This document shows, in pieces, positions 16,588 to 56,112 of a stretch of 64,000 nucleotides of DNA (its first letter is position 1; every line of letters starts with the position of its first letter). The stretch covers positions 1 to 64,000 of the IMG/VR virus record IMGVR_UViG_3300032312_002037. One strand, written 5' to 3'. The stretch is from a virus. Lineage: Duplodnaviria > Caudoviricetes. A model generated the notes under the pieces. That model was not told where the DNA came from, made no database searches, and saw nothing but the letters and a program-made list of their open reading frames with translations. The position numbers were made by a program, and so were the translations under genes.

Positions 16588-17091
16588 TTAATTTAATTTA
16601 TTTTTGTCTTTTATTATATCTTCGATTGAAGGTTTTTGATTTGATAATTTTAATTCTTCTCTAACTTGCATAAGAATTTTACCTAAATGATTTTCACCTT
16701 TGCCATTACAAACACCCCAGTAAAAATCCCGCCACCAGTTACCCTCGATTAACTCTTGGTCTCCGGTAGATAGTAACATTTCTGATAAAGTTTCTTCTTT
16801 GAATTTTTGACGAACAGCCCAGTTCATAACTTCTAACTTCTTTTCATCCCAACCAGTTCTTAATTTCACTTTGGAACCAAGTCTTTTAACTTCAGCTGGA
16901 TTAATAACTTTAGCAATCATTTCACGAAAATCACCGGGTGTATAATATCTACCATTTATTAGTTGTTGATCATTGACCTTCATAGCCACATAAAAGTTTT
17001 CAACAGAGGGATATGTAATTCCTTGATGTTCTATCTTACACGGATAGAAATTGGATAAGAATCTATAACGACCTTCAAATTTATCAATCAT
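16588..17091 (-). CDS. NADAR (YbiA-like) family protein
   Basis: Motifs FLSNFYP, YPSVENFY, VRQKF, LIEGNWWRDFYWG..GENHLGKILMQVR. Start reassigned to MIDKF because the track start overlaps the tmRNA. Confidence 0.9.
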   Translation of the reverse strand: MIDKFEGRYRFLSNFYPCKIEHQGITYPSVENFYVAMKVNDQQLINGRYYTPGDFREMIAKVINPAEVKRLGSKVKLRTGWDEKKLEVMNWAVRQKFKEETLSEMLLSTGDQELIEGNWWRDFYWGVCNGKGENHLGKILMQVREELKLSNQKPSIEDIIKDKNKLN

Positions 17092-17137
17092 AGTTATTAT
17101 ATCAATCAAATTAATAAAGTTTAACTGTTTAAAATAA

Positions 17138-17159
17138 CAAAAGACCATCGCTGGTCTTT
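17138..17159 (-). terminator. Intrinsic terminator downstream of the tmRNA
   Basis: AAAGACCA-gcga-TGGTCTTT hairpin followed by a T-run on the minus strand. Confidence 0.75.
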
Positions 17160-17166
17160 GTTCTTG

Positions 17167-17548
17167 TGGAGATGACGTTGTACTGCCCAACGTGTCTTTT
17201 TCGGTTGTTAATAATTATTCATTCACAGGCGTAGTAAATTTTTATAAACTTACAAACTTTTTACTTTTTTTGAGAAACTCTAAAAAGTAACAAAAAACCA
17301 TTTCACTCTTTTATTCTTGTGTGAAACAAGTTGGAGAATTTTTTGATAATGAACTGTTGTTAGACAGTCATTAGATCTTCTACCAAGATCATGTTGTTTT
17401 GTAGTGCAAATACTAAATCTTCATTGCTAGCTACTTCGTTTGTTTTGCCATTTACGACTTTACCATCTAATTTATTAATCGGTCATACGACAACCCGATA
17501 CCCGCATAATCACCACCACTCCGCAAATCAATTCTAAAAAACATCCCC
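17167..17548 (-). ncRNA. ssrA: tmRNA (one-piece, about 382 nt)
   Basis: 5' GGGGATG pairs with 3' CATCTCC-A, giving a G3-U70 alanine determinant. The T-arm is ACGTTG-GGCAGTA-CAACGT. An internal UAAAU-GGC resume context opens a 29-codon tag at 17449-17360. It has its own promoter and terminator. Confidence 0.9.
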
Positions 17549-17567: not shown

Positions 17568-17598
17568 CAAATATATATATAATATTCGAAATATCAAA
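17568..17598 (-). promoter_or_regulatory. Bacteroidota-type promoter for the tmRNA
   Basis: Minus strand TTTG-N19-TATATTTG about 20 nt upstream of the mature 5' end. Confidence 0.7.
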
Positions 17599-17619: not shown

Positions 17620-18072
17620 TTACCAAGGATAATCATCATCCTTATCATCTGTAACTACACCATCTTTATCATTATCATCTTCTAACATAAATTCAAATGT
17701 AATCATAGGTGAACCAGATTTAGTTTCCCACATTTCATAAGACGAAGAGTATTGAGCTAAAATATCTTTTTTAATTTTCTTAATAACTTCAAATACTTTA
17801 ACAATATCACTAAGTGATTCTCTTCTAGCAAACCGTGCTGTAATAGATAAATCTAATCCACTATTCTCAACATTAACATCTATATTACTATTATTGAACA
17901 TTGATCTTAAAAGATAACAAAGATGTGACATATCATCATCATCAGAATCATCTTCATCCTCACCTTTATATTCATCTTCTCTTGAATAATCATAATCGTC
18001 TTCGTAATCATATCCATCGATATCATCAAATCCCTCACGTTCAAATAATTGATTAAATTTTTTAAGTTTCAT
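17620..18072 (-). CDS. Acidic hypothetical protein with a CTS-like N-terminus
   Basis: Starts MKLKKFNQLFE and is D/E-rich. Confidence 0.7.
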   Translation of the reverse strand: MKLKKFNQLFEREGFDDIDGYDYEDDYDYSREDEYKGEDEDDSDDDDMSHLCYLLRSMFNNSNIDVNVENSGLDLSITARFARRESLSDIVKVFEVIKKIKKDILAQYSSSYEMWETKSGSPMITFEFMLEDDNDKDGVVTDDKDDDYPW

Positions 18073-19482: not shown

Positions 19483-19872
19483 TTAAACTACAATTTGATA
19501 TGAATTTGTATAATCTACTTTCACTTGACCATCATTCATACCTGATTCTTTCTTAACAAATCTACTTTGGCAATAAACAACAGTTGCTTTATCATCTTTA
19601 GAAGCTTTACTATTCTTTTTAGCCAATTGAGCGGCTAATTTAATAACTATTTCAGTAGGTAGATTCTCTCTAACACGAATAACAACATGACTACCTGGAA
19701 CACCTTTAACGTGCATCCAAATATCTTCTTTATCAGCAACATTAAAAGTTAGATGGTCATTAGATTTAGCATCTTTACCAACATAAACAACAAATCCTTC
19801 AATTTCTAATTTTTGAATATTAGGAAATTTATCTTTTTTAGATTCGTTAAATGAATTAAATTTCTTTATCAT
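19483..19872 (-). CDS. Stand-alone NFACT RNA-binding domain protein (NFACT-R/DUF814)
   Basis: VYVGKDAKSNDHLT..DIWMHVKGVPGSHVVI..AAQLAKKNSK. Start reassigned to MIKKFNSFNES. Confidence 0.9.
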   Translation of the reverse strand: MIKKFNSFNESKKDKFPNIQKLEIEGFVVYVGKDAKSNDHLTFNVADKEDIWMHVKGVPGSHVVIRVRENLPTEIVIKLAAQLAKKNSKASKDDKATVVYCQSRFVKKESGMNDGQVKVDYTNSYQIVV

Positions 19873-19956
19873 ACTGTATATATTAATTAGAAATTCTTTA
19901 AAAAGAAAAAAGACCCATAAAGGGTCTTTTTTCAATATTTCCAATATTACTATTGA

Positions 19957-24408: not shown

Positions 24409-26289
24409 ATGATAGAATTAAAAGAAGGTGATGTTTACGAAGGACAAATTGAGTTCTCAACAAACGGTAACGCATCATTAGTAGTGGAAGACAAGGAAGT
24501 CTTTATCTACAAGAAAAACACAGCCAACTCTTTAAACTTAGATAAAGTAAAGATTCAAATATTTAAGGCTGAAAGAAAATTAGAAGGAAAAGTCATTGAA
24601 GTTGTTTCAAGATTTAAGACTGAGTATGTCGGTAGAGTACAAATAGGTAAAAAAACAATATTTGTTGTTCCTGATAGTAATAAAGTTCCGGTAGACTTCT
24701 ATATTAAAGGCGGATTAAAAGCCGAACACGACCAAAAGGTTGTAGTTGAGTTAATAAAGTGGGAAGATACTAAATCACCACAAGGAAAAATCACAAGAGT
24801 TTTAGGAGATTCTGGAGATAATAATACAGAAATGAACTCAATTATGATTGAGTATGGTTTACCTATTGAATTTCCACAAGATGTTATCAACGAATCTTTC
24901 TTAGTGCCTGAAGTTATTACTGAAAAAGAAATCAATTCTCGTAAAGATATGAGAGGTATAACAACTTTAACAATCGATCCAGTTGATGCTAAAGATTTTG
25001 ATGATGCCTTATCAGTTAATATTATCAACGATAATAAGATTGAAGTAGGAGTTCACATTGCTGACGTAGGTCACTATGTTAAACCAGGAACTAAATTAGA
25101 CGATGAGGCTTTCAAAAGAGCCACATCAGTATATTTAGTTGACAGATGTGTTCCAATGTTACCAGAACGTTTAAGTAATGGTATATGTTCACTTAAACCA
25201 AACGAAGATAGATTGGCATTCTCTGTTATCTTTACTTTAGATAATGAAGGTAATATATTAAATACTTGGCAAGGTAAAACCGTTATTCACTCTGATAGAA
25301 GATATGCTTATGAAGAAGCTCAAGAAATCATCGAAGGTAATGATGGTAATTATTCAACTGAGATTAGATTACTTGATACTTTAGCTAGAAAGATTAGAAA
25401 GAAAAGAATCAAAGAAGGGTCCATTGAAATGGGTGGTATTGAAGTAAGATTCAAATTAGCTGAAGATAATAAGAAACCAATTGGTGTTTATTTCAAAGAA
25501 CAAAAAGAAGCTAACAAGTTAATTGAAGAATTTATGTTATTAGCTAACAAGTCAGTTGCTAAAACTTTATCAGAGGCTAGTTGGGCAAATGTATATAGAG
25601 TTCACGATACGCCAAATATGGAAAAGTTAAATGCTTTAGTTGGTGTTTGTAAAACGTTTGGATACGATATAGAAATATATGATGATTCAACTGAAATCAA
25701 AAAGACTCTAAATGGATTATTAAAAGAGATTAAAGAAACTCCTGAAGAAAATATGATTGAGACTTTAGTTACTAGATGCATGTCTAAGGCAACTTATACA
25801 ATTAAGAACATTGGTCACTATGGTTTAGGATTTACTCACTACTCTCACTTTACTTCACCAATCAGAAGATATCCTGATTTAATCACACATAGAATTTTAT
25901 TAGACTTTTTAGATAAGAAATCTCAAGGCAATCCTAGTAAGATTGAAGAGCAAGCCAAATGGTGTTCTGCTAGAGAATTGGTTGCGGCTAAAGCTCAAAG
26001 AGATTCAATTAAATACAAACAAGCTGAATATCTTTTAGATAAGATTGGGAAAGTATTTGATGGTATTGTTTCAGGTGTAACCGATTGGGGTATGTATGTT
26101 GAATTAATTGAAAGTAAATGTGAAGGAATGGTTAGATATCAATCTCTTGAAGGTAAATGGTCAGCTGATACAACTAATTACACTATAACAAGTGAAATGG
26201 GTGAAAAAATCAGATTAGGAGATCCTCTTAAAGTTGTAGTTAAGTCTGTGGACTTAGAAAGAAAACAAATAGATTTTACTTTATTGTAA
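24409..26289 (+). CDS. rnr: Ribonuclease R (RNB family 3'-5' exoribonuclease)
   Basis: Motifs TIDPVDAKDFDDALS, VHIADV, ATSVYL, IEEFMLLAN, HFTSPIRRYPDL; cold-shock domains and C-terminal S1. Confidence 0.95.
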   Translation: MIELKEGDVYEGQIEFSTNGNASLVVEDKEVFIYKKNTANSLNLDKVKIQIFKAERKLEGKVIEVVSRFKTEYVGRVQIGKKTIFVVPDSNKVPVDFYIKGGLKAEHDQKVVVELIKWEDTKSPQGKITRVLGDSGDNNTEMNSIMIEYGLPIEFPQDVINESFLVPEVITEKEINSRKDMRGITTLTIDPVDAKDFDDALSVNIINDNKIEVGVHIADVGHYVKPGTKLDDEAFKRATSVYLVDRCVPMLPERLSNGICSLKPNEDRLAFSVIFTLDNEGNILNTWQGKTVIHSDRRYAYEEAQEIIEGNDGNYSTEIRLLDTLARKIRKKRIKEGSIEMGGIEVRFKLAEDNKKPIGVYFKEQKEANKLIEEFMLLANKSVAKTLSEASWANVYRVHDTPNMEKLNALVGVCKTFGYDIEIYDDSTEIKKTLNGLLKEIKETPEENMIETLVTRCMSKATYTIKNIGHYGLGFTHYSHFTSPIRRYPDLITHRILLDFLDKKSQGNPSKIEEQAKWCSARELVAAKAQRDSIKYKQAEYLLDKIGKVFDGIVSGVTDWGMYVELIESKCEGMVRYQSLEGKWSADTTNYTITSEMGEKIRLGDPLKVVVKSVDLERKQIDFTLL

Positions 26290-41559: not shown

Positions 41560-41844
41560 ATGGCAACAATTACTAAAAAGAAGACCGAATCAAAGGTAGA
41601 AGAAATTTTATCAAAACCATATAAGTTGATTCTACACAATGATGATTACAATACATTTGATTGGGTTATTACATGTTTAATGAAAATTTGTAAACATGAA
41701 AATGAACAAGCTAATCAATGTGCTCACATCATACACTATAACGGAAAATGTGATGTTAAATACGGAGACATTGAAACTATCTCAAATATGAAAGACAAGT
41801 TAAGGAATGCTGGTTTAAGTGCTACAATGGAATCTAACGATTAA
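41560..41844 (+). CDS. clpS: ATP-dependent Clp protease adaptor ClpS
   Basis: YKLILHNDDYNTFDWV..AHIIHYNGKCDVKYG. Confidence 0.92.
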   Translation: MATITKKKTESKVEEILSKPYKLILHNDDYNTFDWVITCLMKICKHENEQANQCAHIIHYNGKCDVKYGDIETISNMKDKLRNAGLSATMESND

Positions 41845-56003: not shown

Positions 56004-56035
56004 AATACTAAATAAAGGCGCAGATTTATAAATTA

Positions 56036-56096
56036 AAAACCCACCAATCGGTGGGTTTTTTTATTTAACAAAAAACCCACCGATTGGTGGGTTTTT
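56036..56096. terminator. Paired mirror-image terminators
   Basis: ACCCACCAATCGGTGGGT followed by its exact reverse complement ACCCACCGATTGGTGGGT, each flanked by A/T tracts. Confidence 0.85.
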
Positions 56097-56112
56097 AATT
56101 TTAATATTATTC

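Follow-up and report, generated by a model that had tools for sequence, protein, structure and literature searches.

The window, i.e., the whole stretch of DNA that was analysed, is 64,000 nt in length and has 29% G+C. Its source record is an 82-kb IMG/VR virus with an estimated completeness of 14%. The window is read well with the standard genetic code, and stop-codon recoding was rejected. A 527-nt intergenic gap is present between a NADAR-domain gene on one side and an ORF of 150 codons on the other. The gap contains a putative tmRNA gene that is flanked by a promoter and a terminator. The features of the locus are as follows.

16588–17091, minus strand: NADAR-domain gene (PF08719, E 3.7e-26)
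17130–17159, minus strand: intrinsic terminator, with an 8-bp stem at 17140–17159 followed by a T run
17164–17548, minus strand: putative tmRNA gene, 385 nt, with 40 distinct homologues of 366–386 nt
17568–17598, minus strand: Bacteroidota-type promoter, TTTG-N19-TAnnTTTG, found by pattern match
17620–18072, minus strand: ORF of 150 codons

The conservation between copies has sharp edges, starting abruptly at GGGG and ending at CCACAA. We infer that the mature RNA has its 5' end at 17548 and its 3' end at 17167, with CCA added later. There are 19 nt between the end of the promoter's -7 box and the mature 5' end, which implies a short leader. The promoter pattern is found 14 times in the window where 5.5 matches are expected, and both boxes of this promoter are conserved in the related genomes LR745206 and LR756502. 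At the site of the terminator the relatives show a hairpin and a T run with differing sequences; promoter and terminator are conserved in kind among relatives. The NADAR gene is situated directly downstream of the terminator. In the list of open reading frames it starts at a TTG at 17190, which is inside the putative tmRNA gene, and the ATG at 17091 is the likelier start.

Homologues were collected by two pattern scans of viral contigs, one with pseudoknot 1 plus the tag and one with the 3' half of the tRNA-like domain. These gave 60 loci on megaphage contigs and 40 distinct full-length copies, which are 69–99% identical to the window sequence. The gap has an identity of 79.5% with LR745206 (634,780 bp) and 69.9% with LR756502 (642,428 bp), both of which are public genomes of "uncultured phage" without annotation. 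The four largest complete genomes in PMC7162821 are placed in the Mahaphage clade, which also includes the Lak phages, and their predicted hosts are Bacteroidetes; tmRNAs were annotated with ARAGORN in that work.

Standard tools do not detect this sequence. ARAGORN with default settings leaves both the window and two related loci without a call, and with thresholds lowered to 40% it yields either nothing or junk "permuted" calls. An Rfam scan of the window shows no tmRNA family at the gathering score or at E ≤ 10. When the models RF00023, RF04321 and RF01849 are run on whole related genomes, the matches are merely tRNA-sized and below threshold, and RF01849 and RF04321 have no match at E ≤ 0.01 in five records. 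The sole trace from curated tmRNA models is an 8.6-bit match in LR756502 that covers the T arm and the 3' strand of the acceptor stem. A profile of the family run with nhmmer finds no match among 137 loci, some of which are tmRNA genes of Bacteroidales and Caulobacter, and a forced alignment with Bacteroidales tmRNA displays blocks of loose similarity that are suggestive only. No profile or model ties the family to accepted tmRNAs by sequence, and its assignment is therefore based on architecture, covariation and SmpB context.

Secondary structure and base compensatory changes

The elements of the structural model are given below in 5' to 3' order. All are on the minus strand, and numbers in parentheses are positions in the RNA.

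17542–17548, minus strand: acceptor stem, 5' strand (positions 1–7), GGGGAUG
17530–17541, minus strand: D-loop analogue without a stem, core AGAAU
17500–17529, minus strand: helix 2, 5' strand (positions 20–49), a G-A/A-G junction and then P2a to P2d
17462–17499, minus strand: pseudoknot 1, with P3 (50–54/67–71), P4 (58–61/84–87) and an invariant A-rich linker
17450–17454, minus strand: UAA-R-Y box, U at -5 and A at -4, just upstream of the resume codon
17360–17449, minus strand: tag reading frame, resume codon GGC, 29 codons, stop TAA
17374–17390, minus strand: hairpin within the tag frame (159–164/170–175)
17352–17369, minus strand: helix 5, with the stop codon in its loop
17301–17330, minus strand: pseudoknot 2 (219–222/230–233 and 223–228/243–248)
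17261–17290, minus strand: hairpin 3, at the place of PK3
17234–17253, minus strand: hairpin 4, at the place of PK4
17195–17230, minus strand: helix 2, 3' strand (positions 319–354), ending in an invariant AGAC before the T arm
17175–17193, minus strand: T arm, 6-bp stem and 7-nt loop, GGCAGUA at 17181–17187
17168–17174, minus strand: acceptor stem, 3' strand (positions 375–381), CAUCUCC
17164–17167, minus strand: discriminator A at 17167, then CAA at 17164–17166 in place of CCA

Unguided folding with RNAalifold predicts the acceptor stem, a long interrupted helix that reaches the base of the T arm, P3, the hairpin with the stop codon (helix 5) and the T arm. A hand-written structure of 89 base pairs in 14 helices, two pseudoknotted, was counted on an alignment of 22 sequences (A3). 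In this alignment 95.0% of the cells of the structure are paired, compared with 37–50% when the partners are slid and a mean of 89.1% in shuffles. Base changes on both sides are found in 31 of the 89 pairs (6–13 with slid partners, a mean of 16 in shuffles), and none of 500 shuffles reached 31. The covariation score is 0.239, versus 0.03–0.07 for slid partners and a shuffle mean of 0.128.

The acceptor stem consists of 7 bp that are 100% paired in the 40 sequences. Its G3.U70 pair and the discriminator A73 are both invariant. Pair 5:68 is A-U in 31 sequences, G-C in four, G-U in four and C-G in one, and pair 6:67 is U-A in 37 and A-U in three. The D-loop analogue that follows is 12 nt in the window copy and 10 nt in most copies. 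Helix 2 has at its foot an invariant G-A opposite another invariant G-A; its segments P2a to P2d are 95–100% paired, and every segment has two-sided changes. There is no anticodon arm, and the T arm is directly 5' of the 3' strand of the acceptor stem.

In pseudoknot 1, P3 is invariant in the first set of 22 sequences. In the 40 sequences all of its cells are paired (100%), and two-sided changes are present at two pairs. For P4 the paired fraction is 89% and a CG/UA exchange is seen, but the stem is short and rich in G-U, so its support is moderate. At two pairs of the hairpin within the tag frame AU is exchanged for CG, and the encoded residues are altered as well. Two-sided changes are present at four of the six pairs of helix 5 (22 sequences), in both stems of pseudoknot 2 and at five of the eight pairs of hairpin 4 (40 sequences). 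Hairpin 3 covaries as well. Pseudoknot partners were sought for hairpins 3 and 4 and for a conserved UUCUCC stretch, and no consistent pairing was found. Active tmRNAs with reduced numbers of pseudoknots are known (PMC3968760).

The T stem has two-sided changes at five of its six pairs in the 40 sequences. The sixth pair is an invariant A-U and hence is unproven. The T stem appears to be 6 bp in length, which would give an acceptor/T stack of 13 bp, unusual for EF-Tu binding. The T loop is GGCAGUA in 28 copies, GGCGGUA in four and a close variant in the other eight. Thus 32 of the 40 copies have GGCRGUA, which does not match the standard tmRNA consensus UUCRANY. The T-loop consensus of RF01849, as aligned by the Rfam model on the Caulobacter locus, is GGCgGUA, the same as the phage loop, and the D-loop cores are likewise close (AGGAU in RF01849, AGAAU in the phage RNA). 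Since the alphaproteobacterial consensus has GGCRGUA, UUCRANY is not universal for tmRNA. The alphaproteobacterial gene is permuted and gives two RNAs, whereas the phage gene is unpermuted, with the 5' GGGG first, the T arm and the acceptor 3' strand last, and a single transcription unit. The alphaproteobacterial loop motif AACAGAA is found in just five of the 40 phage copies. A text search of the literature for the T-loop signature motif gave no match. Convergence or domain transfer are possible origins of the alpha-like loops.

An initial annotation of this DNA had proposed a full tmRNA in the gap that is hidden from detection. It described an acceptor stem GGGGAUG/CAUCUCC-A with G3-U70, a Bacteroidota promoter and a terminator, and a T loop of the alpha type in a one-piece gene. 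The layout is borne out on the minus strand by the homologues and the paired and two-sided positions given above. The proposed acceptor stem is present and paired throughout the family, and the two signals are located at 17568–17598 and 17140–17159. The description as hidden agrees with the ARAGORN and Rfam results, and the T loop is of the RF01849 consensus type in a gene with unpermuted order.

Tag reading frame and 3' end

The tag frame is open in all 40 copies and is 27–29 codons in length. Insertions and deletions in the frame are of whole codons only, while adjoining non-coding stretches carry single-base indels. The other two frames have 125 and 42 stops over 22 copies. The UAA of the box upstream of the frame is invariant in all copies, and the codon after the box always begins with G (GGC, GGA or GAC). 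The box aligns with the CAAAU that precedes GGC in Bacteroidales tmRNA. Neither a ribosome-binding site nor an in-frame ATG, GTG or TTG is seen where the frame begins.

The predicted tag has 30 residues, including the charged alanine, and its middle is strongly conserved. It is long but falls within the range of 8–35 residues of known tags (PMC3968760). The C-termini in the family are MTV, ATV, ATA, VVA, VIA or LV; they are hydrophobic, the last residue is A or V, and none is ALAA. In E. coli, degradation still takes place with weakened ssrA variants whose ends are AAV or ASV. Loss of the degron was not accepted, because the family tags have hydrophobic A/V ends and such variants are degraded. 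A hydrophobic C-terminus ending in A or V would be compatible with degradation of the Clp type. The tag may also have an additional reader, as suggested by its long conserved middle.

The 3' end of the gene is ACAA in 39 of 40 copies. The tRNA genes of related phages mostly end in N73-C-A-A, and two Bacteroidales tmRNA genes end in ACUU and ACUA with no encoded CCA. The four near-complete relatives with the RNA (LR745206, LR756502 and two IMG/VR records, 476 kb and 385 kb in length) all encode a nucleotidyltransferase of the CCA-adding type. Post-transcriptional addition of CCA is proposed because the gene has no encoded CCA, similar to the phage tRNA genes and the Bacteroidales tmRNA genes. 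The related megaphages (LR745206, LR756502, G001 and G002) have dense arrays of tRNA genes, and several of these tRNAs have long variable loops or odd anticodon loops and are not named by ARAGORN.

The earlier proposals for this part of the gene fared unevenly. A frame for a 29-residue tag is well supported: its translation gives the tag of the annotation, its GGC start fits the AAAU|GGC context of Bacteroidales tmRNAs, and the frame is conserved. The tag was said to be far longer than usual; it is long in relation to the 10 residues of Bacteroidales tags and falls within the known range. The ALAA ending is absent, but the description of the tag as lacking a degron was overstated in view of the hydrophobic A/V endings. 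Addition of CCA after transcription to an encoded ACAA agrees with the phage tRNA genes, the Bacteroidales tmRNA genes and the CCA-adding-type enzyme. Avoidance of ClpXP and competition with the tmRNA of the host, which the annotation also raised, would be speculative.

Candidate partner genes in the window and in related phages

Three other genes of note are located elsewhere in the window.

19483–19944, minus strand: stand-alone NFACT-R protein of 153 residues (PF05670, E 5.5e-16)
24409–26289, plus strand: RNase R/RNase II-type exoribonuclease (RNB, E 1.7e-110), with cold-shock and S1 domains
41614–41814, plus strand: ClpS adaptor gene (PF02617, E 2.6e-20)

All four near-complete relatives encode an intact SmpB (PF01668, E 1e-50 to 1e-53). 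The 82-kb source record, with its estimated completeness of 14%, has no SmpB gene. The same four relatives show no tmRNA above the cut-off for RF00023, RF04321 (permuted) or RF01849. As there is no other recognisable tmRNA in these genomes, the hidden RNA is left as the sole candidate to pair with the SmpB of the phages. The 80 best matches of the phage SmpB in bacterial genomes are 42–50% identical, and they come from many phyla but not from alphaproteobacteria. They point to no single donor of the gene.

A Clp-type AAA+ ATPase of approximately 710 residues is present in the four relatives and ClpP in three of them. ClpS is encoded in all four and on the window's own record. With ClpS, a Clp-type ATPase and ClpP encoded, this group of phages has its own parts for Clp proteolysis. 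Bacterial RNase R acts with tmRNA-SmpB on non-stop mRNAs. The NFACT-R gene is 2 kb from the putative tmRNA gene and is immediately after a gp23-like capsid gene. NFACT-R is a domain of the ribosome quality-control factors RqcH and NEMF.

Proposed function and alternative explanations

The sequence at 17164–17548 is very probably the ssrA gene of a Bacteroidota-infecting megaphage of the Mahaphage clade, and it would encode a divergent one-piece tmRNA. This reading is drawn from comparative analysis of the copies and their genomes. It is consistent with the resemblance to Bacteroidales tmRNA of the RF00023 type, which is likewise unpermuted and has a 7-bp acceptor stem with G3.U70 and A73. Muribaculaceae tmRNA and the Rfam consensus share with the phage RNA a D-loop analogue of 10 nt, the G-A junction, a long helix 2, one unpaired C and the T arm. 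Bacteroidales tmRNA and the phage RNA both have PK1 before the tag, the stop codon in helix 5 and no encoded CCA. In Muribaculaceae and Bacteroides tmRNAs translation resumes at a GGC after AAAU, which opens the tag GENNYALAA, and the phage RNA has the same AAAU|GGC context.

There are also differences. The T loop is GUUCAAA in Bacteroidales tmRNA but GGCRGUA in the phage RNA, and the T stem has five pairs as opposed to six. Bacteroidales tags are 10 residues in length and end in ALAA, whereas the phage tag has 30 residues and ends in ATV, MTV, VVA or similar. In comparison with standard tmRNA, the phage RNA has one clear downstream pseudoknot only and is set in DNA of 29% G+C.

In the proposed mechanism, host RNA polymerase would transcribe the gene from the Bacteroidota-type promoter and RNase P would remove the 5' leader. 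The 3' trailer would be removed and CCA added, possibly by the phage nucleotidyltransferase. G3.U70 and A73 would then allow host AlaRS to attach alanine to the RNA. Together with the phage SmpB, the charged RNA would enter ribosomes stalled on broken mRNAs or on mRNAs that have no stop codon. Translation would resume at GGC, add the tag of alanine plus 29 encoded residues and end at UAA, whereby the ribosome is freed.

Several other explanations for the conserved RNA were weighed. It could be a tRNA-like decoy that does not tag but binds SmpB, AlaRS or ribosomes and thereby blocks trans-translation in the host, with the frame remaining untranslated. Such a role would resemble that of the domain-only RNA of mycobacteriophage DS6A; a phage RNA with only a tRNA-like domain is on record and inhibits tmRNA (PMC4131195, PMC11915505), and an RNA with so unusual a T loop and a T stem of 6 bp might not function normally. 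However, a decoy would not account for a frame that is kept open in 40 copies with whole-codon indels only, or for the conserved context of the resume codon and the conserved location of the stop in helix 5. An intact SmpB encoded by the phage also makes little sense for a pure inhibitor, and a decoy is considered improbable. Even less probable is a non-coding, structured RNA whose end is tRNA-like and whose role is other than rescue, e.g., in regulation or priming, where the likeness to tmRNA is convergent. That no tmRNA model or profile recognises the family would fit this explanation, but all of the architectural elements of tmRNA are present in canonical order and spacing, G3.U70 and A73 do not vary, and SmpB co-occurs in four of four genomes that have no other tmRNA.

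The peptide-level conservation in the middle of the 29-codon frame could also be explained by an ordinary mRNA for a small protein, with its own start codon and structured untranslated flanks. The frame has neither a candidate start codon nor a ribosome-binding site where it begins, it starts right after an indel-prone stretch and the UAA box, and its flanks form a covarying tRNA-like domain, all of which make a small-protein mRNA highly improbable. The least probable explanation, which the covariation contradicts, is a decaying, non-functional remnant of a tmRNA gene captured from a host. The loose blocks of similarity to Bacteroidales tmRNA in the forced alignment are in its favour, but compensatory changes have been maintained across the helices at 69–99% identity, promoter and terminator are conserved, and the frame is intact in every copy.

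Given a functional tmRNA, it is conceivable, if rather doubtful, that these phages have a private trans-translation system. The core of alpha-like D and T loops and the 13-bp stack would then function with the phage SmpB only, and the long tag with its conserved middle would be read by the phage Clp ATPase, ClpP or ClpS and not by host ClpXP. In such a case the phage itself would decide the fate of proteins from stalled ribosomes during infection.

Known phage tmRNAs, i.e., those of Bacillus phage G, Bxz1-type mycobacteriophages and Melnitz-type marine phages, are also products of phage-borne ssrA genes in large phages that have tRNAs and translation factors, as in the megaphages described here (PMC4131195, PMC9004378, PMC12484599). 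For huge phages, ssrA has been reported in general terms (PMC7162821). All of the known phage tmRNAs were detected by ARAGORN or by tmRNA models, both of which miss the megaphage family. Their tags are shorter than the megaphage tag; that of phage G has 13 residues. In the literature searched, an unpermuted gene with an alpha T loop, an apparent extra T-stem base pair and a 30-residue tag without ALAA is not reported in this combination.

Pairing with the hidden RNA would explain the "orphan" SmpB of these phages. Although tmRNA is thought to be easy to find, the clade with the largest known phages would carry one that is missed by ARAGORN, a tool on which phage surveys rely. The family would provide a natural test of which parts of the tRNA-like domain are needed by SmpB, EF-Tu and AlaRS, of the purpose of a long tag and of the reasons for which a giant phage would maintain ribosome rescue of its own. 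The alignment of 40 sequences could seed a covariance model for the annotation of phage genomes.

The Rfam family mir-181 is matched in the window on both strands at positions 56024–56107, with a score of 46.2 bits versus a gathering score of 45.5 bits. The site is a long, A+U-rich perfect palindrome around GGUGGGUUU; its bidirectional hairpin is almost certainly a chance match and not a microRNA.
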